This document shows positions 44,290-63,382 of a stretch of DNA of 64,000 nucleotides, piece by piece (within the stretch, counting starts at the first letter, position 1; each line of letters begins with the position of its first letter). A program made the position numbers and the translations under genes. The stretch is from an uncultured Mesoterricola sp. (GTDB lineage Bacteria > Acidobacteriota > Holophagae > Holophagales > Holophagaceae). A model generated the notes under the pieces. It saw only the letters and a list, made by a program, of their open reading frames with translations, made no database searches and was not told the origin of the DNA. The stretch lies in NCBI GenBank assembly GCA_964627225.1, contig CAZVHQ010000007.1:47165-111164 (forward strand), read 5' to 3'.

Positions 44290-44325
44290 AACATACTATA
44301 ATTGTTATATATTTAATTCGGTCCC

Positions 44326-46638
44326 ATGTCCACCAACGAGCATCACCTGCAACCCGAGTGGCTAGACGCCCACAGTCCGAGGCAGGGGCGCTACGTGCTG
44401 GGGCCGCCCCTGGGCCGGGGCGGCACCGGCGAAGTCCAGGAAGCCTGGGATGTGGTGCTGTGCCGTACCGTCGCCTTGAAGGTGCTGAAAAAGATGGACC
44501 CGGGCAGCCTGCTCCGGTTCATGCACGAAGCCCGGCTGCACAGCCGGCTGGTACATCCCAACATCTGCCAGATCTACGACGTGGACAGCACCGAGTGCTC
44601 GCCCAGGATCGCCATGCAGCTGGTGCGCGGGCCGACCCTGGCCGAGGCCGCCGGCAGTTTGACGGTGGAGGAGATCGTGCAGATCCTGGCCCAGGTTGCC
44701 GACGCCGTCCACGCCGCCCACCGCCTGAAGCTGATCCACCGGGACCTCAAGCCGTCCAACATCCTCCTGGAGCGGAACCCCGAAGGCATCTGGTTCCCCT
44801 ATGTCTGCGATTTCGGCCTGGCCATGGAGCTGGACCAGCCCGCCTTGACCGCCCCCCTGCGGGTGAACGGGACCCCCGCCTACATGGCGCCCGAACAACA
44901 GTGCGGCGAGCGCGGCCGGATCGGCCCGGCCACCGACGTGTTCGCCCTGGGCGGCACCCTGCACTTCGCCCTCCATGGCCAGCCGCCCCAAGGCCCGGCC
45001 ATCCAGGGCGGCCCAACCCCGGGAGCGCCCCGGACCGTGCCCAGGGAGCTGGAACATATCGCCCGCAAGTGCATGGAGCCCGACCCCGGGCTGCGCTACC
45101 CATCGTCCGCCGCCCTGGCCGAAGAGCTCTGCCGGTTCCGCAACGGCGAGCCCATCCAGGCCGGCCCGGGAGGCCTGCTGGAGCGCCGCTGGCGCCGCTG
45201 GCGCGGGGCCTGCAAGCGCGCCGGCGCCGTTGCCCTGGCCTGCGCCATGGCCGGCGGCGCGTTCGCGCTGGCCGAGCGCCGCCAGGCCGCCGCGGCCCGG
45301 CGGCGCTCGGGCTGGGAGCGCGGCTTCGTGCTGGAGGCCGCGGCCATGGAGCGCGACCTGAGCCTGGAAAAGATGCTGCCCGTGCACGACCTGAGGCCCG
45401 CCTACGCCCAGCTCCGCTCCAGGCTGCAGGCGCTCCAGGAGCGGCTGGCGGCGCTGGGTCCGGAAGCCCAGGGAGCCGGACACTATGCGCTGGCCCAGGG
45501 CCGGTTCCTGCTGGGCGATTGGCCGGGGGCGCGGCTGGAGCTGGAACGGGCCGGGGCCTCGGGGTTCCGCGGGCCGGAACTGGCCGGCCTGCTCGCCCAG
45601 ACCCTGGCGGCCGGCCAGGACCGGAAGGAAAAGGCCGCCCAGTTCCAGGGCACGGCGGTCGCCGCCCCGGCCGGCCAGGTGGCGGACCTGGTCCGACAGA
45701 ACCCCGCTTCGGGCGACTATGGCGAAGCCATGGTGGCCTACTTGAGCAAGGACTACGCCCGGGCCTTCGAACTGGCCCGGGCGGCGGGCCGGGCCCAGCC
45801 CTGGCAGAGCGCCGCGGACGCCCTGGCCGCCCAGAGCCTCACCGCCCTCGGCCGGCAGGGCATCGACCGGGACGATTTCCTGCTGGCCGAAGCGCGCTTC
45901 GGCACCGCCATGGAAGTGGCCCGGGACCGCCTCCAGCGCGACCCGAGCGACGAATCCATGCACCATGCCTACCTGCTGGCCGCCTGCGGCCTGGCCTCGC
46001 TCCGGCTGGAACGGGGCCGGCTGGCCGCCGCCTTCCTGGCGCGCCTCCGGCAGGACAGCGAAACGGCCTTGCGCCTGAACCCAGGCAACCCGGAGCTCCA
46101 GGACGACCGTCTGGCGGTCGGCATCCTGCAAGCCCGGCGTCTGGCGCAACGGGGGGCCGACCCCGGCCCGGAGTTGGACGCCGCCCTCCGGTTCATGGCC
46201 GCCTGGACCCGCGAGCCGCTCGACGCCGAGCTGCGCGCGGACCGGATGCTGATCCACTGGCTGCGGGCGGAACGGGCCTTCAGCCAGGGCCGGGATCCGG
46301 AACCGGCCCTGGCCCAGGCCCTGCTGGACCCGGGCCATACCCCCTTCCTGGGCCGGGACTACCTGGGCGCCGTGCTGAACTTCAAGGCCCAGGTGGAAGC
46401 CGCCCGGGGCCGGGATCCCAGGCCGACCCTGGATCAGGCCATGGCCGGGCTGGAACCCCTGCTGGGCCAGGGCGCCCCCGGTTTCCTCTGCGCGACCGCC
46501 GCGCAGTCCTGGCTCATCCGGGGCCGCTGGGAAGCCGCCCACGGCCTGGACGCCAGCCCGAGCCTGCGGCGCGCCCGGGAACTCGCCGAACGCGGCCGGG
46601 GCCGGCGGCCGAGAAATCTGGTTGCATTCCTTGAATAA
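44326..46638 (+). CDS. membrane Ser/Thr protein kinase with TPR-like C-terminal region, paralog 2
   Basis: GRGGTGEV, VALK, HRDLKPSN, DFG, GTPAYMAPE; colinear with paralog 1. Confidence 0.92.
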   Translation: MSTNEHHLQPEWLDAHSPRQGRYVLGPPLGRGGTGEVQEAWDVVLCRTVALKVLKKMDPGSLLRFMHEARLHSRLVHPNICQIYDVDSTECSPRIAMQLVRGPTLAEAAGSLTVEEIVQILAQVADAVHAAHRLKLIHRDLKPSNILLERNPEGIWFPYVCDFGLAMELDQPALTAPLRVNGTPAYMAPEQQCGERGRIGPATDVFALGGTLHFALHGQPPQGPAIQGGPTPGAPRTVPRELEHIARKCMEPDPGLRYPSSAALAEELCRFRNGEPIQAGPGGLLERRWRRWRGACKRAGAVALACAMAGGAFALAERRQAAAARRRSGWERGFVLEAAAMERDLSLEKMLPVHDLRPAYAQLRSRLQALQERLAALGPEAQGAGHYALAQGRFLLGDWPGARLELERAGASGFRGPELAGLLAQTLAAGQDRKEKAAQFQGTAVAAPAGQVADLVRQNPASGDYGEAMVAYLSKDYARAFELARAAGRAQPWQSAADALAAQSLTALGRQGIDRDDFLLAEARFGTAMEVARDRLQRDPSDESMHHAYLLAACGLASLRLERGRLAAAFLARLRQDSETALRLNPGNPELQDDRLAVGILQARRLAQRGADPGPELDAALRFMAAWTREPLDAELRADRMLIHWLRAERAFSQGRDPEPALAQALLDPGHTPFLGRDYLGAVLNFKAQVEAARGRDPRPTLDQAMAGLEPLLGQGAPGFLCATAAQSWLIRGRWEAAHGLDASPSLRRARELAERGRGRRPRNLVAFLE

Positions 46639-46728
46639 TGGCGGATGGCGCCTAAGTGCCTTTCCCGCTAGTCCCATCATCGCTCCTGTGCGACAATTCC
46701 ATTGCATCAGAGCGAGACAAGGGACCCC

Positions 46729-47295
46729 ATGACTGGAAATTCCGACAAAGCCCCCAAGAAGGTAAAAGAAAAAAAACAAACCCCACAGGAACGTCTCGAA
46801 GCCATGCGCTACAACCATATGATGTATGGCCCAACCGAAGGGGAATTGAAGCTAAATCCGAAAAAAGTGGATTTTGGCGCCTCATTCCTAAAGCACGCCA
46901 AATTCCAAAGCCTGATGACCTCCTTTAAAAACGGAACCGCCTTTAAATTTGACATCACTGCCAATGGCAAGATTTCCACCATCGATACCGATGGCTCGCA
47001 CATCTCCTTCGACGGCAAGGTGCTCTTCTACGCCCGCGCCTTGAACAAGTACGAGGACAACCTGCTGCTCGAACGCGGCACGGCGGTTCAACTCCAATCC
47101 AACGACGCGGTGGTCCACCTGGTGTTCGCCGTGTTGCGCAGCCTGCCGGAGCTTGGCGAGCCGCAATTTTCCTATCTGCACCACAAGTTCTACCACGGCA
47201 ACGGCAGCCTGGAAACCAGCTCGACCGAGCAAGGATCCAATCTATTGATTGGGCCTTATAAACATAATAAAACCCACGAAAAAATCAAGTACTGA
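46729..47295 (+). CDS. hypothetical protein, lower GC
   Basis: 188-aa ORF with AAGGGA RBS-like sequence; family not recognised. Confidence 0.6.
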   Translation: MTGNSDKAPKKVKEKKQTPQERLEAMRYNHMMYGPTEGELKLNPKKVDFGASFLKHAKFQSLMTSFKNGTAFKFDITANGKISTIDTDGSHISFDGKVLFYARALNKYEDNLLLERGTAVQLQSNDAVVHLVFAVLRSLPELGEPQFSYLHHKFYHGNGSLETSSTEQGSNLLIGPYKHNKTHEKIKY

Positions 47296-51672: not shown

Positions 51673-51764
51673 ACCGGGCTGCCGTTGCGGTCATTGCTTG
51701 GGAAATCATGGCTGATGGACAAAGGCCAGGGTTGCGTCAATTTGCGCCCAGCCGTGGCCTGCCC

Positions 51765-52432
51765 TCACAGGAACAGCGAACCTTCGATCACTTTCACGGC
51801 CTTGCCGGCGATCATCACGCGGTCCCCCCTCAGCTTGCAGAACAGCTCGCCGCCCCGCTTCGAGAGCTGGCGCGCATGGAGGTCCCGCTTGCCCAGGCGC
51901 TCTGCCCAGTAGGGCACTAGGACACAGTGGCTGCTGCCCGTGACCGGGTCTTCGGGAACGCCCATTTTCGGCGCGAAGCAGCGGGACACGAAATCGCAGT
52001 TGGAGCCCGGAGCGGTCACGACGATGAGCGCGGGCTCGAGCCGGGAGATGGCATCCAGGTCGGGCTTCAAGTTCCGCACGGAGGCTTCGTCTTCCAGCAA
52101 GGCAAAGAGGTCGCGGGTCACGGCCAGCGGTCCGGTCTTGCCGACGAAATCCACCCGGTCGCGCTCAGGATGGAGTTCGTTGAGCAGCACGAAGGCGCTG
52201 GCCAGGGTCGCGTGCCCGCAGAGGTCGATCTCGCCCCCGGGCATGAACCAGCGGATGCGGTAGCCCTTCCCTTCGGCACGAAGAAAGCGGTCTCCGACAG
52301 GTTGTTCTCCGCGGCAATGGCCTGCATGGTCGGTTCGGGCAGCCACTGCTCCAGCGGCATCACGGCCGCCGGATTGCCGCTGAAGGGATGTTCGGCGAAG
52401 GCGTCGATTTGATAGATGGGGTATTGGCTCAT
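51765..52432 (-). pseudogene. PhzF-family protein, frameshifted and internally deleted
   Basis: QIDAF..GNPAAV..NLSETAF in one frame; RWF..EIDLCGHAT..EDPVTGS in another; shift near 52274. Confidence 0.85.
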
Positions 52433-52466
52433 GCCTGGCTCCGTCCCTTCACTTCCAGGATCATTT

Positions 52467-53867
52467 CTATTGCCGTCGCGCCCGCAGGGTTTCGAGGATG
52501 GCATCAGCCGAGCGGTCGATGTCCTGTTCGGTCGTGGACCAGTTGCTGATGGAGATCCGCATGGCAGCCATGCCGTGCCAGACGGTCCCGCCCAGCCAGC
52601 AGGTGCCTTCCTGCTGCACGCCGGCGATCACCGCCCGGGTCAGGGCATCGGCATCCCAGTGCGGGTCTTCGAACCTGACCAGCACCTGGTTCAGCACCAC
52701 TTCGTTGAGGATCCGCACCGTCGGTTCGGCCCCGAGCCTTTCGGCCATGCGCTTGGCCTGGCTGCAATTGCGTTCCACCAAGGCGCGCAGGCCATCGCGT
52801 CCCAGGCTGCGCAGGACGGCATACACCGGAACCGCCCTGGCGCGCCGGGATTCCTCCGGCACGAACTCGTGGGGATCGCGCTCCTGGGTGTCCGAAACGA
52901 TGTAGGCGGCGGCCAGGGACATGGCCGCCCGGTGCGCTTCGGGATGCGCGCAGAAGACGATGCCGCAATCATACGGGACGTTGAGCCATTTGTGCCCGTC
53001 GGTGGCGATGGAGTCCGCGCCTTCCAGGCCGGCGGCAAGCCTTCCAAGGGATGGGCTGGTGCGGGCCCAGAGTCCGAAGGCACCATCCACATGCAGCCAT
53101 GCGCCGCGGGCGCGGCAAAGCCGCGCGATCTCCTCGATGGGGTCGAACGCGCCGGTGTTCACGTTTCCGGCCTGCGCGCAGACGATGCAGGGTCCGCTGC
53201 TTTCGCCGAGCATCCGGGCCAGTTCCGGGGCGAGCATGCGGCCCTGGGCGTCGGTGGGGACGCGCCGCGCCCGCCCGGCGCCCAGCCCCAGCAGACGCAG
53301 AGCCATGGAGATGGTGTAGTGGGATTCTTCGCTCACCAGGACGTCGATGGCGGGCGCCCCGGTCAGACCGGCGGCCTCGACGTCCCAGCCCTCCTTGATG
53401 AGCACATCGTGGCGGGCCGCCGCCAGGGCCGTGAAACTCGCCATCTGGCAGCCGGTGACGAAACCCACCCCGCGATGGTCGGGGAGCCCCAGGAGATCGC
53501 GCATCCACCCCGCCGTGATCTCCTCCACGACCGAGATCATGGGCGCCATGGCATAAACGGCGCTGTTCTGGTCCCAGGCCGAGACCAGCCAATCCGCGGC
53601 GGTGGCGACGGGGAGGCTGCCCCCGATCACGAAGCCGAAGTAGCGTGGTCCCTGGGAGGCGAGGGTGCCTCGCTCCGCCGCGGCCGCCAGCGTGTTGATC
53701 ACCGCCGCGCTCTCGGTCCCCGCCGCGCCGAGAGCGCCCCCCAGCGCGCTCCGCAGTTCCTCGCTGGTGGCGCTGGCAGCCACGGGGCGGTCGGCCACTG
53801 TGCCAAGGTAGGCCTGTCCATGCTGGGCGGCAAGGGCAAGCAGGGCATTCCGGTCGTCATGGTTCAT
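52467..53867 (-). CDS. group II PLP-dependent (aromatic) amino acid decarboxylase
   Basis: RYFGFVIGG, DWLVSAWDQN, GNVNTGAFD, HVDGAFG, DGHKWLNVPYDCG. Confidence 0.88.
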   Translation of the reverse strand: MNHDDRNALLALAAQHGQAYLGTVADRPVAASATSEELRSALGGALGAAGTESAAVINTLAAAAERGTLASQGPRYFGFVIGGSLPVATAADWLVSAWDQNSAVYAMAPMISVVEEITAGWMRDLLGLPDHRGVGFVTGCQMASFTALAAARHDVLIKEGWDVEAAGLTGAPAIDVLVSEESHYTISMALRLLGLGAGRARRVPTDAQGRMLAPELARMLGESSGPCIVCAQAGNVNTGAFDPIEEIARLCRARGAWLHVDGAFGLWARTSPSLGRLAAGLEGADSIATDGHKWLNVPYDCGIVFCAHPEAHRAAMSLAAAYIVSDTQERDPHEFVPEESRRARAVPVYAVLRSLGRDGLRALVERNCSQAKRMAERLGAEPTVRILNEVVLNQVLVRFEDPHWDADALTRAVIAGVQQEGTCWLGGTVWHGMAAMRISISNWSTTEQDIDRSADAILETLRARRQ

Positions 53868-53987
53868 CACGTTCTCCGCAGCAGGGGCAGGCAGCCGCAT
53901 GGCTTCTCTGGTCAAGAGCAAGGAGACCACCGGCCGGAATCGAGAAACAGATACAAAAAATAATATTTAAGCTATAACAGATTCACC

Positions 53988-55415
53988 ATGCCCAGCCTCT
54001 ACCAGGACATCGCGCACCAGCTGGCCCGGACCATCCAGGACGGACTGATCAAGCCCGGAGAGTCGCTCCCTTCCCTGCGGCAGTTCTGCCAGAGCCAGGG
54101 GGTGAGCCTCATGACCGCCCTGGCGGCCTATCGCCATCTGGAGGACATCGGGCTGGTGAAGGCAGTGCCCCGCTCCGGTTATCGGGTGCTGGCCACCCAG
54201 GTCGCGCCGCTGATCCACCCGGCGATTCTCCGCTCCAGGCTGAACTCGTCCAGCACCCACCGGACCGACATCATTTCCCAGTTGTTCCTGGCCTCAGCGG
54301 ATCCTGCCATCATCCCGCTCGGCTTTGGCTGCCCGTCCGCGTCCTTGTTCCCCCTGTCCGGACTGCGCAAAGTCACCCGGGAGCTGCTGAACACCCGCAA
54401 GGAACTATGGGTGACCTACTCCACGCCTCCCGGCTGCGCGGCGTTGCGGCGCCAGATCGCCCGGCGGCTCCAGGCGCGGGGGATGGACGTTGGCGAGGAG
54501 GAGGTACTGCTCACGGCCGGCGGCATGGAGGCCCTGTCGCTCTGCCTGCGTCTGCTGGCGGACCCTGGAGATCTCGTGGCCGTGGAGTGCCCGACTTTCT
54601 TCGGGGTCGTCGACGCCGCCCGGAACGCCAGGGCCAGGATCGTCGAACTGCCTGGAGACCCGGTCGCGGGGCTCGATCCCGGACGTCTGGCCGCCGTGTG
54701 CACAAAACAGCCGGTGCGCGCGGCTGTGCTGCTTCCCAATTTCGCCAACCCCACCGGCAGCCTCATGCCCGAGGACAGGAGACGCGAGTGGATGAAGGTG
54801 CTCCAGGCGACCGGGGTCGCCCTGGTGGAAGACGACATCTATGGCGACCTGGCCTGGGATGGCCACAAGCCGGAACTGCTGTGCGCCACACCGCGGGAGG
54901 ACGGCCTGCCGAACCTCCTGGTGGGATCCTTGTCCAAGACGCTCCTGCCGGGCGGCCGCGTGGGTTACGTGGTGGCCAGGAGCCCATGGATCGAGCGGCT
55001 GGCCGACCTGAAGAGCAGCTCCACGCTGGCCAATTCCACCCTCTCCGAACATGTGGCCGCTGAATGCCTTGCTTCGGGGATGTTTGAACGCCACCTTCGG
55101 CATCTGGTTCCGGGCATCAGGACCGGGGTGAGCAGGCTGCGCGGCTGCGTCGCCCGCCAATTCCCCGCCGGGACTCGGGTTTCCGACCCCAAGGGCGGTT
55201 TCTTCCTCTGGGTCGAATTGCCCAGGGGGACGGATTCCCTGGCGCTGTTCCGGGCGGCCTTGAAGGAAGGGGTGAGCCTGGCTCCGGGCTGCATCTTTTC
55301 ATTGGGCGGAGGCCTCGACCGGTTTCTGCGCCTCAACGGTGCGGCTTCCGGGGATCTTGACCAGGCGATGGGGGTTCTCGGGCGGTTGGCGGGGGAATTG
55401 CACAACCAGCAATAA
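53988..55415 (+). CDS. MocR/GntR family PLP-dependent regulator
   Basis: LYQDIA..GESLPSLR GntR HTH; NPTG, EDDIY, SLSKTLLPGGRVG. Confidence 0.93.
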   Translation: MPSLYQDIAHQLARTIQDGLIKPGESLPSLRQFCQSQGVSLMTALAAYRHLEDIGLVKAVPRSGYRVLATQVAPLIHPAILRSRLNSSSTHRTDIISQLFLASADPAIIPLGFGCPSASLFPLSGLRKVTRELLNTRKELWVTYSTPPGCAALRRQIARRLQARGMDVGEEEVLLTAGGMEALSLCLRLLADPGDLVAVECPTFFGVVDAARNARARIVELPGDPVAGLDPGRLAAVCTKQPVRAAVLLPNFANPTGSLMPEDRRREWMKVLQATGVALVEDDIYGDLAWDGHKPELLCATPREDGLPNLLVGSLSKTLLPGGRVGYVVARSPWIERLADLKSSSTLANSTLSEHVAAECLASGMFERHLRHLVPGIRTGVSRLRGCVARQFPAGTRVSDPKGGFFLWVELPRGTDSLALFRAALKEGVSLAPGCIFSLGGGLDRFLRLNGAASGDLDQAMGVLGRLAGELHNQQ

Positions 55416-55505
55416 TCTACTAATTACGGATGGGCAGTTCGCGGCCCGACCTCACCAATCCGGCCATTCCGCCAGCCCCCGTTCCTGCAGAAACCCCATG
55501 TAGGT

Positions 55506-55621
55506 TGCTGAATGGTCATTCCTGCTTTTCTCGACGAGGCATGACTGGACAGGGCCTTCCGTAAATGAAGCCCTCCACCAGGAAGTGCGGGATGCGCTGG
55601 GCTCCGGGAAAGTATGACCCA
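55506..55621. repeat. diverged direct-repeat copy of the leader and first codons of the AlbA gene (62044-62159)
   Basis: 51/56 match at 55506-55561 vs 62044-62099 and 23/24 at 55598-55621 vs 62136-62159, same 6538-bp offset. Confidence 0.9.
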
Positions 55622-55780
55622 ACGGCATTCGTTCTTCCCAATATCAGAAATAGCCGGAATGGATCGTTGCTCATGATCGGGGCGGTTTGACCATGGTTGG
55701 GGCAAAACGCATTGACGTGTTTGGAGGCTTGAGATAATTGTTTGGTTGTGCAATTGTGCAATTACTTGTCGAGGCGTTCC

Positions 55781-56749
55781 ATGGATCTTCGGATTGGCTA
55801 CTTCCCAGTGCTGGATGCCGCCTTAGCCCTTCGTCAAAGCTTTGAATCGCAGCGTTTCGCCCCCTTCAACCCAGTCATGCATGGGATTCACGATCGGCTT
55901 GGCAAGGCGGGCCGGGCCCAGGTGGACCAAGTGGGGCAGGCCACGGGCGGATGGTTGTCCATCCTCGGCATTCTACTTGACCAGGAATCGGCGGGCCTTA
56001 AGGGCCTGGAAGAAGGATTCCTCCAACTGCAACAAGATCCCCTGGCCGCGTTACCGCTGATCCGGAAAGGTACCTTCCCGGACATGAACGGCATGGCCAA
56101 GGTACCATCCGAGTCCACCATCCTGACGGCGGGCCACCTGATGGGCCAGACCCTGGGGGTCAACATCGTCGGTGAAGCCGCCCGGCGCTCCCGTCGGCTC
56201 CTTGAGGCGACCCAGGCTCTCGCCGAGGCTACGCGCAGCCAGGGCGTCTGGCCCTATCTCATGCGGGTCTCCGACCGCCTGCGGCGAACCGCTTCCGGCG
56301 AGATAGCCTTCCGGATCAAGCCCGAATTCCGTCTCCGCGAGGATGCGGTCGAACGCATCGTCCTGACGCCTTCCCTGGTGGCGACCCGCCGCCTCACCTA
56401 TTGGCGCAACGGCTCGACCTTGGTTTTCTTCATCTCCGAATGCGCTCCGGCGGCTCTCAACGATCCACCGGACGGCCTTCTGCTCACGGCCTTGGCCGTG
56501 GGTGACCGCACCCGCCTGCGGATGCTGCGCCGCCTGGCCCAGGGCGCGTGCAACAACCTGGGGATGGCCGAGTTCCTGGGCATGAACCCCTCCACGGTGT
56601 CCCGCCATTTCAAGGTCTTCAAGGACGCCGGTTTCGTGGAATTACGCGAAGGTGCGGATGGGCGCGCGGAATACGAGTTCACCCCCGAGGCCATGACCGC
56701 GGCCTTCGGCGCCATCTCCGACTTCATCCAGGGCAGGGAGCAGCCATGA
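55781..56749 (+). CDS. regulator with C-terminal ArsR-type wHTH
   Basis: AVGDRTRLRML..MAEFLGMNPSTVSRHFKVFKDAGFV. Confidence 0.8.
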   Translation: MDLRIGYFPVLDAALALRQSFESQRFAPFNPVMHGIHDRLGKAGRAQVDQVGQATGGWLSILGILLDQESAGLKGLEEGFLQLQQDPLAALPLIRKGTFPDMNGMAKVPSESTILTAGHLMGQTLGVNIVGEAARRSRRLLEATQALAEATRSQGVWPYLMRVSDRLRRTASGEIAFRIKPEFRLREDAVERIVLTPSLVATRRLTYWRNGSTLVFFISECAPAALNDPPDGLLLTALAVGDRTRLRMLRRLAQGACNNLGMAEFLGMNPSTVSRHFKVFKDAGFVELREGADGRAEYEFTPEAMTAAFGAISDFIQGREQP

Positions 56750-57492
56750 CGCAACTGGAAGAACTGTCGGCCAACGCCTGGCCGGGTCTGCGCTGCTCCC
56801 TGGTGGACGGCTGGATCGCGCGGTTCGCCATGGGCCATACCCATCGCGCGAACAGCGTCCTGCCTCTGGGGCCTGGAAATGGCACCCTGGCCGATCGCAT
56901 CGCCCGGTGCGAAGCTCTGTACCGGCTGGAAGGGCTGGAGCCCTGCTTTAAGATCTTCCCGGAGGCCGTGCCCGAAGATCTGGATGCCCAGTTGGCTCAG
57001 CGCGGCTATATCCGGCGCGCGAACGGCCAAGTCCTGGGGCTCGAGGCCCTGCATTCAGCGCGGTCCGCGACGAAAGGGTGGACGGTCACCAGCTTGCCCC
57101 ACCTGACCCCCGAATGGTTCCAGTTCCATGCTGACAGCAGCGGCCTGGATGCGCGCAAGGCGACCGCGGCCAAGGCCATTCTGGAAGCCATCGTGCCTGA
57201 ACGCCGCTTCCTCATGCTTGAGGGCGACGCTGGACCGGCGGCCTGTGCCCTGATCGTGCTGGAAGATGGCTGGGCGGGCATTTTCGATCTGATGGTGCGA
57301 AAGGAATGGCGCGGGCAAGGCCTGGGGCGCGCCGCCATGCAGATGGCGCTGGCCGAGGCGGCAAGGGCCGGGGCCCGGCGTTCCTACCTGCAGGTGCTGG
57401 ACGCTAACCGGGTCGCCAGGGAACTGTACGCCAGCCTAGGCTACCGGCCTCTGTACTCCTACGGGTTCCGGGTGAAGGCGCCGCATGCCTGA
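56746..57492 (+). CDS. GNAT family N-acetyltransferase
   Basis: NAWP..DGWIARF..RANSV; RGQGLGR; YLQV..N..LYASLGY. Confidence 0.88.
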   Translation: MTQLEELSANAWPGLRCSLVDGWIARFAMGHTHRANSVLPLGPGNGTLADRIARCEALYRLEGLEPCFKIFPEAVPEDLDAQLAQRGYIRRANGQVLGLEALHSARSATKGWTVTSLPHLTPEWFQFHADSSGLDARKATAAKAILEAIVPERRFLMLEGDAGPAACALIVLEDGWAGIFDLMVRKEWRGQGLGRAAMQMALAEAARAGARRSYLQVLDANRVARELYASLGYRPLYSYGFRVKAPHA

Positions 57493-58768
57493 ACCGGCCG
57501 CCCTGCATTCAAGCCCTGCCCACCCTCCGCGAGCGCCGGCCGCGCCGCTGCGCCATGCTCTGCGGGCCTTGAGGCACCGGAACTTCCTGCTGTTCTGGGT
57601 CGGCCAAGGGACCAGCGTGTTCGGCACCTGGATGCAGACCACGGCCCAAGGCTGGCTGCTCTTCCGGCTGACCCATTCGCCCATGGCATTGGGCCTGCTC
57701 AGCGCGGCGCGGTTCGGCCCCGCGTTGGTGGCCGCACCCTTCGCGGGCCTCCTTTCGGACCGTTTCCCCCGGCGCCGGGTGGCGCTGTTCACCCAGGCCG
57801 CAGGCCTCCTGCTGGCCACCCTACTGGCAGAGTTGGCGTTGACCGGCCGGGTGCGGGTCCCCCACATCCTGCTCCTCGCCACGCTTCAGGGCTTCGCGGA
57901 TGCCGTGGACGCGACCAATCGCTATGCCTTCCAGAGGGACCTGGTGCCGGCGGATGACCTGCAAAGTGCCCTCGGCCTCAATTCCGCCGCCTTCAACGTT
58001 GCGCGTATGATGGGTCCCTGGGTCGCGGGAATCCTGATCGCCCGGTTAGGTGAAGCCGTCTGTTTCGGCCTGAACGCCGCGAGCTATCTGGCGGTACTCG
58101 GATCCCTCCTGCTCATCCGGTTGCCCCCTGGCGCCTATTCCAGGCCAAGCCCAGCCAAGGCCCAGGCGCTCCTGGCCGGTCTCCGGTTCACTTTTTCGAA
58201 CCCCGCCATCCGCCGGGTCATGCTCGTGGTGGCCCTCACGTCCCTGACCGGGCTCGCGTTCAACACCCTGGTCCCGGCCCTGGCCGGGGATGTCCTGCAC
58301 ACGGGACCCCGGGGCTTCAGCTGGCTCCTGGCCGGGGGCGGCATCGGCGCGGTCCTGGGCTCCCTCGGCGCCGCCGCCTACGCCACCCCCGGGCGGACAG
58401 CCTGCATTCATGGGGTCGCGCTTTGCGCGCTCGGGTGCGCCCTGTTGACCCTGGCCGTGGCCCGTGCCATTCCGCTGGCGTTGGCCGGAATGATGCTGCT
58501 CGGAGCCATGACGTCGGTCCAGCATTCGACCAGCAATGCCTTCCTGCAAAGCGCAGCTCCGGCCGATTTGCGTGGACGGGTCGCCTCGCTTTACGTCTGG
58601 GTGATGCAGGGTCTGGCCCCCGTTGGTGGGCTGCTCCTGGGCTGGGCAGCGAGCCGGGTGGGCATTCCAATCACCCTCGCCTGGACCGGCTCGGTGGGTT
58701 TGGCGGCCGGAATCACTCTGAGTTTCAGGCTCAGCCGGCACCCCAGGCAGGTGCCGTCGCCAGGTTGA
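57485..58768 (+). CDS. MFS transporter (MFS_3/EntS-like)
   Basis: LRHRNFLLFWVGQ..GTWMQ, DRFPRRR, NSAAFNVAR, LRGRV. Confidence 0.92.
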   Translation: MPEPAALHSSPAHPPRAPAAPLRHALRALRHRNFLLFWVGQGTSVFGTWMQTTAQGWLLFRLTHSPMALGLLSAARFGPALVAAPFAGLLSDRFPRRRVALFTQAAGLLLATLLAELALTGRVRVPHILLLATLQGFADAVDATNRYAFQRDLVPADDLQSALGLNSAAFNVARMMGPWVAGILIARLGEAVCFGLNAASYLAVLGSLLLIRLPPGAYSRPSPAKAQALLAGLRFTFSNPAIRRVMLVVALTSLTGLAFNTLVPALAGDVLHTGPRGFSWLLAGGGIGAVLGSLGAAAYATPGRTACIHGVALCALGCALLTLAVARAIPLALAGMMLLGAMTSVQHSTSNAFLQSAAPADLRGRVASLYVWVMQGLAPVGGLLLGWAASRVGIPITLAWTGSVGLAAGITLSFRLSRHPRQVPSPG

Positions 58769-59019
58769 GGCGGTGAACTCAAGCGATTCCAAAAAGGCAG
58801 TCCGTCAATGGTCACAGCCAACGGGTGGTGCCAGGGCCGAGACAAGATCGCCATTTTGTTCGATCATGGATGAAATGGATGGGCCGGGCGGTCCCGCCCG
58901 TGAAAGCCCTTTCCCGGTCAATGGATCCAATCTGGCGGTGATTTTTCCGTTTAGGTTTCTTCAATTATCCGAAAAGAGTTCCCATAAATTTCGCTAAAAA
59001 TAGTAAGTTATCTTTTTTT

Positions 59020-59060
59020 AGTAACTTACGCGAGCTGCTGGACATGATCAAGTTCGAGCA
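59020..59060 (+). repeat. att-like direct repeat: duplicate of the ubiA 5' region (62522-62562)
   Basis: 38/41 identity, including perfect TGGACATGATCAAGTTCGAGCA; 3 mismatches synonymous in the ubiA frame. Confidence 0.92.
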
Positions 59061-59395
59061 ACTTTTTGGGCCAAAGCTATACCAAGAAACCAAATGGCAT
59101 TTGTTTCCAACACTTACACTCAGCTTTGAGAAGTGCGAACGGTGCTGAAGTGTTTCTTGATGTGTCCATAAGTGCCCTGAAATGTCGAAGCGTTAAGAAT
59201 GCGGTTCGCCCCATGGTTCGCCCCTGATTCGGGCCTCTTGCCGAAATTGGGACCAGGGAATGTCCGCACCGGACCGGACGTCACCGGCTCCAGGCACCCC
59301 TTGGTTCAGGCACTTCCCTGCCACGGCCACCCATGCACATGGAGTGCACTCCGGAGAGTCTGCCTCATGGCGCCAAGCCAGCAGGCAAACCGTCG

Positions 59396-60376
59396 ATGGG
59401 TCAATGGCCCTGGAATTGCGCAAGGCTATCTATCTTTGTTTGTTTATTTAAGGGTCAACATGACCCATTCCTGAGCCCAAATGGCCCATAAAGACGGGTC
59501 AATGGCGCACCATGCCCTCAGACGCCCCATTGAGGCCAGGGGCATGGTATATTCTGCCCGTGAATATTAATCAAAACACCCCCACCGATATCATATAAAA
59601 CCTAGCATTCCCAATAATCGCCATGAATATTATGGCTGGTTAAATATTTGAGTATTCATTCATGACCGTTGAACCCATTAATTTCGCCGACCCAAGACAA
59701 GCCTCTGCGTTGCATGGTCTTCAGCAAGCGGCTTACGGGGCCGAAGCCATATTGCTTGGGACCACAGACTTTCCACCTTTGCGGGAGACCTTGGACGAAT
59801 TGGTATCCGCTGCAGAGGCGACCCTCGGGGCCTGGGACGGAGAGCATCTTTGCGGAGCCATCACTTACCAGGTTTCAGGCCATTCGATCGACCTCTGCAA
59901 GCTCATCATTGACCCGTCCCATTTCCGGCTTGGGCTGGGCTTTTTCCTTGTCTGGCAGCTCCTTCACGCGTTCCCAGGGTTACCTGTTGCCGTGACGACC
60001 GGATCCAGAAACACTCCCGCCTTGCGGCTGTATACCAAGTTGGGATTCAGCCCGATGAAGACGTGGATCGCGAAAGAAGGAATTGCCCTGGTCATGCTCG
60101 TGAGAAATGCCGGCCATCTTTCGCCCATTTCATAACGCTTTGCTCAACCCTGCTCGTCTTGGCCCTATGTACTTCCGTGGTCCCAGCCCATTTTCGATTC
60201 GCCGTTCACGACGGCGAGCGTTCCGAGGGTTGAGGTGCCCAGCAGTGGCACCGGTAATGGAACAATGGCCAGGGAATTGCGCAAAGGTATCCGCATGCTT
60301 TTCGTATCTTTACGGTCAAGATGACCGATACCAGACTCAGAATGACCCCTGAAGATGGGTCAATGGCGCGCCATGC
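59396..60376. repeat. pair of 120-bp diverged direct repeats (59396-59515, 60257-60376) flanking a GNAT gene
   Basis: ungapped alignment at 861-bp offset; shared GGAATTGCGCAA, GGTCAA.ATGACC and GGGTCAATGGCGC. Confidence 0.88.
59662..60135 (+). CDS. GNAT family N-acetyltransferase, lower GC
   Basis: LQQAAYGAEA..DFPPLRET..HFRLGLG..TGSRNTPALRLYTKLGF. Confidence 0.85.
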   Translation: MTVEPINFADPRQASALHGLQQAAYGAEAILLGTTDFPPLRETLDELVSAAEATLGAWDGEHLCGAITYQVSGHSIDLCKLIIDPSHFRLGLGFFLVWQLLHAFPGLPVAVTTGSRNTPALRLYTKLGFSPMKTWIAKEGIALVMLVRNAGHLSPIS

Positions 60377-62057
60377 TCCAATCGGACCACTTAGGCCCGG
60401 GCAGGTAGCGCCCCCGGGAATCGCCGTCCCGGACCAGGGTTTCCTCTTTCACCAAGGCAGCCAAGGCTCTTTTCGCGGTGGAAGGAGACACTCCGAAGCA
60501 GTCCTGATAGTCCTGGTTCTTCACGAACCCTTGCGCCTCCATGCGAAGCCGGAAGGTTTGCCCGGGGTCCATGCGGGTACCGCCAGTCTGAGGGCCTAGG
60601 ACATCCAGGGCGACCCTGACCCGGTACAGGCCGCCGGGCCCTGGGTGGTCGGGCGCCTCCAGGAAGCCGGCGTCGACCATGGCGCGCAACTCCCGGTAGG
60701 CCTGGTCGCGGTCGACATCGTTCAGGGCCTGGTATTCTCCGCTCCCGAAGGCCCCACCTTCGTTCTTGGCCAGAATGCGCTGCTGCCGGATGTTCAAGGG
60801 AAGACGGTGAATGAAGGAGATCCACTCAGGCCGTCCACCCGCGAAGACCGGTGTGTTTCGGAGCGTCATCACGAAAACCCCGCCTTCGAGGTCCAGTTCC
60901 GGCATGGGTAGCCATGACGTCTCCATTTCATCGAAAATGCGGGGCATACCCTCGCCCTGCTCCCGCATCAGGCCCAGTTCCGCCAGAACCCGGGTGACGC
61001 GCGGATTGCGGCTGGCATGGGCCCGGCGGCGGGCACGAAGCGTTTCCAGGGTCACCGAGGGCAGAAGATCCCCCGGACTCCGGATTTCCATACGGTCGGA
61101 AAACAGCCAGACTTCAACGCCGCGCCCATGGTCCCGATATTCTCGGTGCGCCACAGCATTGACCACGGCCTCCTGCCAGGCGAAGGCCGGGTACTCGGGC
61201 ATTTCCTTGAAGAACAGGTCATGCAGGCGCTCCGAATTCCGGATCAGCAACCCGAGCCGGTGGTAGGCCACTTCGATGACCTGGCAGAGATTGCCTTCAA
61301 TCCGGGGCTTGACCTCGGAGACGTTGTTCCTCGATCCGGTGAGACGCTCACTCCCCTCGACCCGGAAGATCCGGATACCTGCATTCGGATGGTCGAGGCG
61401 CCGAGCCGATCCTGAAAACAGGAGCAGGGCTGCACGCCGGAGCAGAAGTTCGGCCCCTCGCCATTCCACCAGTCCACGCTCAAGAAGAAACCCCAGGTAG
61501 TCGGTGGGGGCAAAACCTGCGCTGCGGGCCGCAGCCTCCATCCGCTCGGGATCCAGCGCATCCAAACCGATTCCGGGAACCAGGTCGGATTCATAGCTTT
61601 CCTCTTGGCCACGGCGCTTGATGGCGTTGATCGCCTCCTCGGAGTCCTGGATGACCGTGTCTTTCACTCGCCGAGGAAAGCCGTCACCATGCACCATCAC
61701 CGCCCGGGGCGCGGTGGGCACCGAGAAGATCAGAACCTGGTGGCCTTCCAACTCCTGAACCCAGCCCGGCGCCTGGGGCGGGGTGAGCCGCCTGACGGGA
61801 ACCGAAACAAGATCCTGCAGGACGTCCGCTGGGTAACTATGACCGGTCACCGTCTTGTCATCCTCCTGACCAAGGATGAGCACGCCACCGTCCGCGTTGG
61901 CAAACGCCGCAACAGACGAGGCGACCTCGTCTCGCACTTCGGACCGGGACCGTTGTTTCTTCATTCCGGGGGGACCGTGGAAGAGGCTCTTCCGATCGAA
62001 GAATTGCCCCTCCTCTTGGCGAAGGTATGGCGTGAGGTCAAGCTGCTGAATGGTCAT
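60360..62057 (-). CDS. AlbA_2/Schlafen-domain + HATPase_c_4 (RecG-C-like) + tandem wHTH protein
   Basis: EEGQFFDRKS, AFANADGGVLILG.ED; EAVVNAVAHREY, SPG, RNPR, GEGMPRI; two C-terminal HTH-like segments. Confidence 0.88.
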   Translation of the reverse strand: MTIQQLDLTPYLRQEEGQFFDRKSLFHGPPGMKKQRSRSEVRDEVASSVAAFANADGGVLILGQEDDKTVTGHSYPADVLQDLVSVPVRRLTPPQAPGWVQELEGHQVLIFSVPTAPRAVMVHGDGFPRRVKDTVIQDSEEAINAIKRRGQEESYESDLVPGIGLDALDPERMEAAARSAGFAPTDYLGFLLERGLVEWRGAELLLRRAALLLFSGSARRLDHPNAGIRIFRVEGSERLTGSRNNVSEVKPRIEGNLCQVIEVAYHRLGLLIRNSERLHDLFFKEMPEYPAFAWQEAVVNAVAHREYRDHGRGVEVWLFSDRMEIRSPGDLLPSVTLETLRARRRAHASRNPRVTRVLAELGLMREQGEGMPRIFDEMETSWLPMPELDLEGGVFVMTLRNTPVFAGGRPEWISFIHRLPLNIRQQRILAKNEGGAFGSGEYQALNDVDRDQAYRELRAMVDAGFLEAPDHPGPGGLYRVRVALDVLGPQTGGTRMDPGQTFRLRMEAQGFVKNQDYQDCFGVSPSTAKRALAALVKEETLVRDGDSRGRYLPGPKWSDWSMARH

Positions 62058-62545
62058 TCCGGCTTTTCTCGACGAAGGATGACTGGACGGGGCTTTCCGG
62101 AAAAAATACCCTTACCCGTGAAGCGCTGGAGGTGGTGGGCTCCAGGAAAGTATGACCCAGATGAGGTCCTTGCCCACGGCAACCTAGCCGACCGGACCCG
62201 CCTGATGGTGATCCTGGCCACCCTGATCGAGAGCCACCTGCTTACCGCGAAATGCCATCCGCTGCCCCGATGAAGTAATCCCGAAAGCCGCACAGGCGTA
62301 ACACTCCAGAGTGGATCCATTCGGTTTCTGATCAGGGCCAAGACAAGACCTGGAATATATCGGATCATGTTCCGATGAGCACGGACAAGGATTACCCCCA
62401 GCAAGCCCCATGGCACCACCCCCAACCCGATGCCGAGGTCGATACGAAAGACGAGCCCGTTGTATTTTCAGCGCCAATTGTCGAAAATTCACCAGTAAAT
62501 TTAGTTAAACGACGTGTTTTCAGTAACTTACGTGAGCTATTGGAC

Positions 62546-63382
62546 ATGATCAAGTTCGAGCACACGGTGTTCGCGCTGCCCTTTGCGCTGCTGGGCGCCC
62601 TGGCCACGTCCCGGGGCCTGCCGCCACTCGAGAAGGTGCTGTGGATCCTGGTGGCCATGGTAGCGGCGCGCACCGCCGCCATGACCTTCAACCGCATCGC
62701 CGACCGGGACCTGGATGGGGCCAATCCGCGCACCCGGGACCGCGCGCTCCCCGCGGGCCGGGTGAGCCTCGGCGGGGCCATGGCGCTGCTGGGCCTGGCC
62801 ATCGTGCTGTTCGGCTTCGCGGCGGGACGGCTCGGCCCGCTGCCCTGGAAGCTGACCCCGCTGGCGCTCCTGATCATCCTCGGCTACTCCTTCTGCAAGC
62901 GCTTCACCTTCCTGAGCCACGCGGTGCTCGGCCTGGCCCTGGCCGGGGCGCCGCTGGGCGCCTGGATCGCGGTGAACGGCCGGCTGGATCCGCCGGCCTG
63001 GTGGATGGCCCTGGGCGTGCTCACCTGGACCGCCGGGTTCGACATCCTGTATTCCCTTCAGGACCTTGACTTCGACCAGGCGCGCCGGCTCCATTCGGTC
63101 CCTTCCCGCCTGGGGGTTCCGGCGGCATTGTGGGTCTCCCGGGGCCTGCACCTGGCGGCCCTGGGCGCCTGGGCGATGTTCAACCTGGGCCTGGAGGCGC
63201 ATCTGTTTCCATGGCTGGCCTGGGCCCTGGTGGCGGGCATCCTCGCCCGGGAACAATGGGTGGTCCGGGGCGGACGGCTGGAGCGCATCGACCACGCCTT
63301 CTTCACCTTGAACAGCCTGGTGGGGCTCATCTTCTTCACCGGGCACCTGGCGGAATGGATCGTGGCGCGGCTGGCGCCCTGA
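62546..63382 (+). CDS. ubiA: UbiA-family prenyltransferase (4-hydroxybenzoate polyprenyltransferase/MqnP-like)
   Basis: MIKFEHTVFALPF, AMTFNRIADRDLD..NPRT..R.LP.G, GFDILYSLQD; start may lie a few codons upstream. Confidence 0.92.
   Translation: MIKFEHTVFALPFALLGALATSRGLPPLEKVLWILVAMVAARTAAMTFNRIADRDLDGANPRTRDRALPAGRVSLGGAMALLGLAIVLFGFAAGRLGPLPWKLTPLALLIILGYSFCKRFTFLSHAVLGLALAGAPLGAWIAVNGRLDPPAWWMALGVLTWTAGFDILYSLQDLDFDQARRLHSVPSRLGVPAALWVSRGLHLAALGAWAMFNLGLEAHLFPWLAWALVAGILAREQWVVRGGRLERIDHAFFTLNSLVGLIFFTGHLAEWIVARLAP

Follow-up and report, generated by a model that had tools for sequence, protein, structure and literature searches.

What produced the repeated blocks of DNA that precede a ubiA-family prenyltransferase gene in an uncultured Mesoterricola sp.? 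A preliminary description of the 64,000-nt stretch analysed here (the window) had named four blocks, E, L, P and A, recurring in the same order, and had proposed consecutive insertions of related elements at the start of ubiA. Within the window, the L copies (L1, 55506-55621, and L2, 62044-62159; features lie on the plus strand unless stated otherwise) are 82% identical over 116 nt (E = 1.7e-24), E1 (59378-59549) and E2 (60239-60407) are 72% identical (E = 1.2e-13), and the A copies (59015-59060 and 62517-62562) are identical at 42 of 46 positions (E = 7.8e-10); the P copies were confirmed at 58832 and 62333, where they had been placed. When the 50-64 kb interval was searched in the entire genome by BLASTN, no further copy of E, L or A appeared, and only 2 of 9.5 million genome positions reach 18 bits or more with the P matrix. 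The blocks are therefore genuine and confined to this locus within their own genome rather than genome-wide repeats. The recurrence as first described holds for the two E copies, L, P and A, while its additional echo of E (E', 51715-51740) is doubtful and stays unproven on mixed evidence: its sequence is present as written and its score is attained by 1% of 300 random segments of 13 kb, but it is not among the 12 best genome matches of the E profile, listed down to an E-value of 28. No RNA families or tRNAs were found at threshold.

The gene at the right end of the locus (62375-63382) encodes an MqnP-like prenyltransferase of the ubiA family (PF01040) that scores above the cut-off of TIGR01475; MqnP models also match it, though below cut-off. 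At its codons D-M lies the hexamer GACATG (62543-62548), the predicted strand-exchange region and attR core, flanked by imperfect inverted 10-mers (CGAGCTATTG / ATCAAGTTCG). A second core at 59041-59046, 3,502 bp from the first, would be at once the attR of the left unit and the attL of the right unit. Seven attL/attR pairs have GACATG(A/T)TCAA in common, after which attL departs from the ubiA sequence, and the exact cut sites presumably fall within GACATG. The core pattern matches 102 of 133 family genomes. In 6 of 91 family genomes the core GACATGATCAA is duplicated upstream of ubiA and encloses unrelated cargo (3.5, 6.6, 7.3, 9.0, 14.6 and 23.2 kb between cores), in agreement with the proposals of successive integration at the ubiA start and of variable content in relatives. 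Further duplications occur in genome G021 (on split contigs) and metagenome contig L170; G116 and G142 have weak additional cores (17.5 and 18.9 bits, respectively), which were left out as near background. Empty-site sequence is available from G139 and G094, for G022 and for G059/G102.

As the preliminary description had stated, the units themselves contain no integrase or transposase, none of these families being found among 18 window ORFs scanned with Pfam. In G076, an intact 378-aa tyrosine integrase (PF00589) abuts ubiA and ends 37 bp before the core, and its residues R221, K246, H311, R314, H337 and Y346 are invariant across 19 homologues. The G076 island, the only intact autonomous element seen among the relatives, also encodes a VirD4-like coupling protein and ParA; no relaxase family was matched in it. 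Remnants of this integrase clade lie inside the island of G022 (54%) and abut ubiA in G078 (E = 5.6e-21) and G001 (E = 5e-05), and the clade is confined to the window's family among the 401 phylum genomes sampled. The 21.5 kb before the window's ubiA hold no remnant of the cognate clade, and the genome has no close clade member elsewhere (best 196 bits, against 342-426 bits for distant homologues); for this reason the former autonomy of the two window units can only be inferred. The repeated blocks showed no similarity to integrases that would make them remnants, and the neighbouring xerC gave weak matches only as a candidate recombinase.

The interior of attL (59047-59222) contains a direct repeat, GGTTCGCC-CCAT-GGTTCGCC (59203-59222), a predicted arm-type site of the integrase. 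It sits 162 bp from the core, and with the like repeats of G007, G021, G022, G076 and L170 it makes six elements that carry an arm repeat 160-162 bp inside attL. Its 12-bp period agrees with that of a repeat in G078, and it reads GSPHGSP, the C-terminal peptide of the integrase homologue P0014. Ten of 91 genomes also have an arm repeat ahead of attR, at a distance of about 75 bp; none is recognisable before either P-type core of the window, and G059 and G102 have none after attL. A LexA box has the form GTTC-N7-GTTC; the repeat was rejected as such a box, its motif being absent upstream of lexA and recA at up to one mismatch and its spacing in the window being 8. A phage collection gave no match, and among viral contigs there was no match to the arm, a single chance match to E and five distant integrases that are not at ubiA.

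How could ubiA survive such insertions? The window's gene has a 56-codon N-terminal extension that is supplied by the element in frame. It is preceded by the promoter-like motif P2 (AAGACA-17 nt-GATCAT, 62340-62368), which is predicted to give rise to a leaderless ubiA transcript and scores under threshold in a generic sigma-70 scan. The motif occurs in 58 of 91 genomes, in 57 of which an in-frame ATG or GTG stands 5-10 nt past it with the frame open up to the core. A duplicate of G059 that carried the label G092 was removed before this count and that of the arm repeat ahead of attR. A right-end stretch of roughly 204 bp is common to 21 of the 91 genomes, and in three an integrase coding sequence directly precedes ubiA instead. 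Since P is also present at sites with no visible island, it is perhaps of host origin. The original characterization of all blocks as non-coding has to be revised, because P-A comprises a promoter-like motif and an open ubiA extension from the ATG at 62375, and L holds the start codon of an albA gene. In the left unit, P1 and the displaced ubiA 5' end (58839-59040) have an ATG 7 nt past the -10 box, in a reading frame other than that of the core; this copy carries a frameshift, as does the displaced start in L170. The ubiA start that was originally present, left stranded, could be represented by a weak match to P at 46611 (9.5 bits, not significant).

Both genuine E copies lie to the right of the left A copy and hence belong to the right unit. 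Between them is a gene for a 157-aa GNAT acetyltransferase (59662-60135) that was absent from the earlier gene list. E2 overlaps the stop codon of albA (60360-62057, minus strand), which encodes a 565-aa Schlafen/AlbA_2 and HATPase_c_4 protein (PF04326, PF13749), and L2 spans the albA start and its upstream flank. L2 has no frame with a coding signal, and an excess of synonymous change, as expected of the tail of a coding gene, was absent from every frame of L; among 133 genomes, L is present only in this one and G007. Fused to L2 is a fragment of a carboxymuconolactone-decarboxylase-family gene (62160-62229, 81% to the full gene in G003), a remnant of cargo.

In the left unit, L1 (55506-55652 with its flank) retains the albA start, which is joined to an internal albA remnant (codons 187-199; 55463-55503, minus strand) via deletion of codons 5-186. 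The persistence of two albA remnants indicates that the left albA was deleted rather than exchanged, contrary to the suggested cargo swap between E and L; the variable positions that we observed are E1-to-E2 and L-to-P (spacings of 3.1 kb, about 170 bp and about 45 bp), with a sharp crossover only in the former. The unit's cargo comprises an ArsR-type regulator, a GNAT and an MFS transporter (55742-58768). Its left end is not recognisable, no attL being found in 41.5-59 kb (best other core score 2.1 bits), so phzF (two frames), a PLP-dependent decarboxylase and MocR (51765-55415, no strand assigned) are only candidate members.

The two units might have arisen if E-albA-L-P-A had been duplicated locally once, long ago, and the copies had then diverged, and L, P and A are indeed alike in orientation and adjacency. 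However, the left-unit remnants are nearer to G007 than to the adjacent right copy (59 versus 49 of 65 positions for L1, 37 versus 33 of 41 for the internal remnant), the two P-core stretches of the window are 55% alike, no closer than between genomes, and relatives duplicate the same core around unrelated cargo, with an integrase. This largely refutes a local duplication, which we regard as very improbable and which would have counted against the preliminary description.

The explanation that we consider probable is that two decayed, integrase-less islands stand in tandem in the 5' end of ubiA/mqnP, having entered through a predicted tyrosine-integrase reaction at GACATG, and that each brought a replacement gene start and a predicted promoter. 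In favour of this, three distinct sequences adjoin the right unit on its left, in the window, G007 and L170. An island circle would recombine at the ubiA D-M codons, as the duplicated cores in six genomes suggest, and its right end would furnish the new 5' end that keeps ubiA intact, either as an integrase stop followed by an ATG, the form seen in G076, or as P plus an in-frame extension, a form whose sequence is seen and whose promoter activity is presumed. The next island would then enter the rebuilt site and shift the older one leftwards, whose displaced start would decay, in line with the frameshifts in the window and L170. Deletions would finally strip the integrase and parts of the cargo, as remnants of albA, the decarboxylase and the integrase in the window or its relatives suggest; both window units would once have had an integrase. 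The right unit, with both cores and the left arm repeat, could be excised given a cognate integrase.

Could the units instead be members of a satellite-island family that is still active and has always lacked an integrase of its own, with core, arm, E and P as a minimal module moved in trans? Four of the six core-bracketed elements show no integrase (window, G007, G059 and G102), the P-to-core distance is held at 199-205 bp in 21 of 58 P-bearing genomes across six genera, and read run X18 holds several variants of 62156-62392. Moreover, the albA DNA of the window is 98% identical to that of L170 (88% to G007), although the left neighbours of the window and L170 copies differ. Against this stand the clear deletion scars in albA, the decarboxylase and the partial integrase of G022, the lack of a helper integrase in a genome that is 95% complete, and the fact that the L170 contig ends inside albA. 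No circle joint, and no excision or empty-site joint, was present among the matches listed in the contigs of eight runs, which drop rare variants. We therefore think this alternative unlikely and retain decayed islands in tandem as the explanation.

A separate question is whether E is itself a recombination site. Both copies contain the 12-mer GGAATTGCGCAA (59412-59423 and 60273-60284), between imperfectly inverted flanks, beyond which lie direct repeats resembling TGACCC. In the window the E copies enclose the GNAT gene and in G007, where they stand 12,298 bp apart, a lanthipeptide cluster of 12.3 kb; nothing occupies this position in L170. The last, a metagenome contig, does not have the 861-bp E-GNAT unit, and its crossover falls inside GGAATTGCGCAA, with 40 of 40 positions matching E1 to the left and 31 of 33 matching E2 to the right; E may therefore be a second cassette site. 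L169 equals G007 rightwards from 18 bp left of the 12-mer and diverges before that point. A second site-specific site nested in the islands, at which E-bearing circles with the GNAT gene or the lanthipeptide cluster insert, is compatible with decayed islands, but we consider it rather unlikely. Since the 12-mer ranks among the two longest perfect matches that E1 and E2 share, a homology-driven deletion predicts the same crossover; the G007 repeat (240 bp at 81%) is expectable from related elements in tandem; E was found in just 2 of the 133 family genomes; L167 and L168 hardly differ from G007 and are thus not independent; and E is accompanied by no recombinase gene.

The genome does encode an integron integrase (TIGR02249, 470.7 bits, contig C170). 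The GNAT gene was rejected as an integron cassette, its end failing the attC test (fold z-score -0.86, no stable bottom-strand hairpin), and a strict scan found no attC (R''-L''-L'-R'), a weak scan that also missed a candidate site beside the genome's own integron. Nor is the E core part of a conserved host gene: of 16 matches outside this genome and G007, the 9 inspected had no consistent locus. E-skip joints were absent among the matches listed in the read-run contigs, and RNA runs contained at most 5% of the sequence words. It is harder still to credit a two-tier, integron-like cassette system of the Holophagaceae in which integrase-less minimal islands pass between strains on a borrowed ubiA-specific integrase, their right end being the ubiA promoter and start, and E swaps genes or clusters; we consider this improbable.

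With this locus, an Acidobacteriota family that is poorly tractable gains an integration hotspot in a protein-coding gene and a candidate pair of integrase and attB, and since the attB lies within codons conserved across the family (102 of 133 genomes), it could serve as a landing pad. It also suggests that mobile DNA has repeatedly overwritten both the promoter and the N-terminus of a gene in the quinone pathway. If E is truly a second site, it would represent an undescribed cassette mechanism, directly testable with the trio of L170, window and G007.

Among known systems, dusA-specific islands are described as tyrosine-integrase islands with varied cargo that enter the 5' end of a protein-coding gene, displace the earlier 5' end to their opposite boundary and supply a new one with putative -35/-10 elements (Farrugia et al. 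2015, PMC4482086). The window units likewise insert in a gene 5' end and bring a new start and promoter, the latter by motif only. They differ in that the target is ubiA/mqnP rather than dusA or dusB, that they are stacked and without an integrase, that the integrase clade was found only in the window's family among the 401 phylum genomes sampled, and that the replaced part is a length-variable extension with a promoter predicted to be leaderless. SXT/R391 ICEs restore prfC with a new 5' end. Unlike the window units, they are described as large self-transmissible elements (PMC4542580), and their target is another one. For a nested second target such as the candidate E site, IMEs that integrate into the oriT of ICEs offer a model (PMC7563491). 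No second integrase was found, however, and an oriT identity of E would be hypothetical.

A further known system is the tandem accretion of ICESt1/ICESt3-related elements, reportedly treated by Pavlovic (2004). The CIMEs (cis-mobilisable elements) are described as elements that lack an integrase, keep their att ends, span 1-13 kb and occur in tandem with the most decayed farthest from the target, in composites at 3'-end targets in streptococci that include a functional ICE or IME (PMC5704250, PMC7563491). The window units also lack integrase and transfer genes and stand in tandem at one target, with the more decayed left unit farther from the gene. In the right unit both cores and the arm of attL are present, with no arm recognisable at attR; the left unit has an attR, and since no attL was found in 41.5-59 kb we do not class it as a CIME. 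Further differences from these composites, as there described, are the 5'-end target, the lack of a functional partner in the tandem and the need for each element to carry a promoter. Bearing on descent from an ICE or IME are the IME-like G076 island at the same site and the deletion scars in the window, together with the finding that the two have no internal DNA in common. Thus, the claim that no such family had been described does not hold for the kind of system, 5'-end-replacing islands, CIMEs and tandem accretion being already described; in the literature searched, neither ubiA/mqnP as an integration target nor this integrase clade was found. The units are best read as decayed islands that resemble CIMEs and lie stacked at a 5'-end target that is new.

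The 5′ region of ubiA was compared in 91 genomes, the window's included, out of 133 family genomes searched, with up to 19.5 kb of upstream DNA in most of them and less where contigs were short. At least six of the 91 carry a second copy of the predicted GACATG core upstream of ubiA. The core-to-core span is 3,502 bp in the window, 6,555 bp in G102 (efflux pump), 7,254 bp in G059 (two-component system), 8,976 bp in G022 (Hma defence genes), 14,554 bp in G007 (lanthipeptide cluster) and 23,190 bp in G076. The core is also duplicated in G021, on split contigs, and in the metagenome contig L170. All duplicated cores share GACATG(A/T)TCAA, after which the left copies depart from the ubiA sequence, and imperfect inverted 10-mers lie on both sides of GACATG, as would be expected of a tyrosine-recombinase core. 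Uninterrupted sites are found in G139 (for G022) and G094 (for G059 and G102); together with the differing cargo, they agree with the integration at the ubiA start proposed in the preliminary description. The G007 cluster (LanB, LanC and peptidase-containing ABC transporters; L031:4862-15250) lies between two copies of the repeat block E. At L041:10543-15086 in G022, hmaA is truncated and half an integrase is fused to the end of hmaC.

An intact integrase was found at the same target in G076, a single-contig genome, where a 378-aa PF00589 protein ends at a stop codon 37 bp short of the core, with the new ubiA start directly after it. Its six catalytic residues are invariant across 19 aligned homologues. 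Other genes of the island code for a VirD4-like coupling protein, ParA and a type IIG restriction enzyme; no relaxase family was matched in it. Remnants of this integrase clade occur inside the G022 island and immediately before ubiA in G078 and G001. Remoter relatives (30-47%) are located at tRNA-like or other sites, and a 43% match in G021 is on a contig that could not be connected with ubiA. In a set of 401 phylum genomes, with four candidates per genome scored, only G022 matched at E 1e-90. The window contains no integrase remnant, and its genome has no close member of the clade. Elsewhere in that genome, contig C170 has, next to a candidate cassette site, an integron integrase scoring above cut-off.

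A GGTTCGC direct repeat, the putative arm site, recurs at two positions: in six elements it is 160-162 bp into attL, and in 10 of the 91 genomes it precedes attR by ~75 bp, falling within the last integrase codons in G076 and G078. The window's repeat has a 12-bp period, as in G078, and translates to GSPHGSP, a protein-level match to the end of the integrase homologue P0014. A LexA-box reading of the repeat failed when checked.

Blocks P and A had been described as non-coding, which is not the case: P is followed by ATG 62375, and the frame is open into ubiA, giving a 56-codon extension. P (consensus GAGACA-17 nt-GATCAT) is present in 58 of the 91 genomes, and in 57 of these an in-frame ATG or GTG follows after 5-10 nt, open through to the core. 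This geometry would suit a σ70 promoter with a leaderless message; a generic promoter scan gives P no score. The P-to-core distance is 199-205 bp in 21 of the 58, in which the last stretch is AT-rich (mean GC 0.45 vs 0.70). In the displaced ubiA starts, the first ATG has kept its frame in G059, G102 and G076 but not in the window and L170. P is missing in 16 of 17 genomes with fadD within 1.7 kb of ubiA and found in 57 of the 74 others, a pattern rather than a test as the counts come from kin genomes. G094 has a second P motif 755 bp before the core (L246), ahead of the gene upstream of ubiA. After the window's fadD, two tandem Ser/Thr kinase genes (41782-46638) are shared with G003, G009 and G011; a 197-aa ORF at 46702-47295, with 81% DNA identity to one at the same place in G003, had no match in Pfam, NCBIfam or PADLOC.

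The source genome (4.75 Mb, 95% complete; window on contig C7) allowed the repeats themselves to be assessed. By self-comparison of the window, the copies of L are 82% alike over 116 nt, those of E 72% over ~170 nt and those of A match at 42 of 46 positions, in line with the preliminary description; a whole-genome search found no further copies of L, E or A, which argues against common genome-wide repeats. The window's P sites, short as P is, score 34 and 31 bits with a matrix from 57 relatives and are the only two in the genome at ≥18 bits. The E echo at 51715 is doubtful: its score is reached by 1% of 300 random segments, and it is absent from the E-profile matches listed. A GNAT gene, overlooked earlier, sits between both E copies; both therefore belong to the right unit.

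L is the albA start plus its upstream flank. The left unit retains albA codons 1-5 fused to codons 187-199, so the gene was deleted here, and the cargo swap that had been proposed is not supported. In these remnants, 59 of 65 and 37 of 41 positions match G007, against 49 and 33 for the right unit; the window's own P-core stretches are only 55% alike. The units are thus two separate family members, as first suggested, and a single local duplication is highly unlikely. The L-to-P content is 3.1 kb in the left unit, ~170 bp with a decarboxylase fragment in the right unit and ~45 bp in G007; since the junctions have no common target, deletion fits. No attL of the left unit was found in a search of 41.5-59 kb, so phzF, the decarboxylase and MocR are only candidate members of that unit. 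In this stretch, phzF occupies two overlapping frames (51765-52432), maybe a true frameshift or an assembly matter, and runs carry a substitution at 52261.

Three distinct deletions remove part or all of the albA Schlafen/AlbA_2 domain: window 55463-55519 (codons 5-186), L031:18635 (codons 1-79) and a joint at 61648-61994 in run X19 (codons 22-137; one contig, depth 3). Such repeated loss might mean that the nuclease is costly to its host; an anti-phage effector role has been reported for Schlafens of bacteria (PMC13056530). In G068 and G078 (L142 and L143, respectively), albA homologues overlap by ATGA an RM specificity-like gene, its family judged by eye, which suggests a type I RM origin.

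A metagenome scan gave four E loci, two of them near-identical to G007. In L170, G003-type cargo is followed by the core, the arm, a single E and an albA 98% identical to the window's. This contig tracks E1 to the left of GGAATTGCGCAA (40/40) and E2 to the right (31/33), indicating that the 861-bp E-GNAT unit was gained in the window or lost in L170 by a crossover within that 12-mer. In G007, a 240-bp repeat brackets 12.3 kb; in the metagenomic locus L169, the change of partner falls 18 bp to the left of the 12-mer. From these junctions, E might be a second recombination site nested in the islands, which we consider unlikely: the L170 and L169 junctions fit homology-driven exchange between related tandem elements equally well, and no recombinase is linked to E.

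The stretch is present, whole or in part, in 20 runs from 19 studies, mostly peat or wetland metagenomes; two of the runs may be the window's own source. Among the joints listed for contigs of eight runs, which drop rare forms, there were no circle, empty-site or E-skip joints. Contigs of X3, X4, X5, X15 and X16 break at 59287-59294 and carry additional sequence there, as would fit an IS-like insertion that duplicated GCTCCAGG; it is missing from the window and X2.

Literature searches on integrases, attB, genomic islands and Holophagaceae/Geothrix showed no ubiA- or mqnP-targeting island; the TIGER target tables may list the site; ubiA is not mentioned in the text or one supplement of PMC12884075. 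SXT/R391 ICEs at prfC (PMC4542580) were taken as a comparison system. Judged by PMC4482086, the units resemble dusA-type islands in 5′ replacement but fall outside the dusA family by their target. Compared with CIMEs, as portrayed in PMC5704250 and PMC7563491, the right unit is CIME-like with predicted att ends only; for the left unit no attL was found. By analogy, the stacked units would pair the 5′ replacement of dusA-type islands with the accretion of CIMEs.
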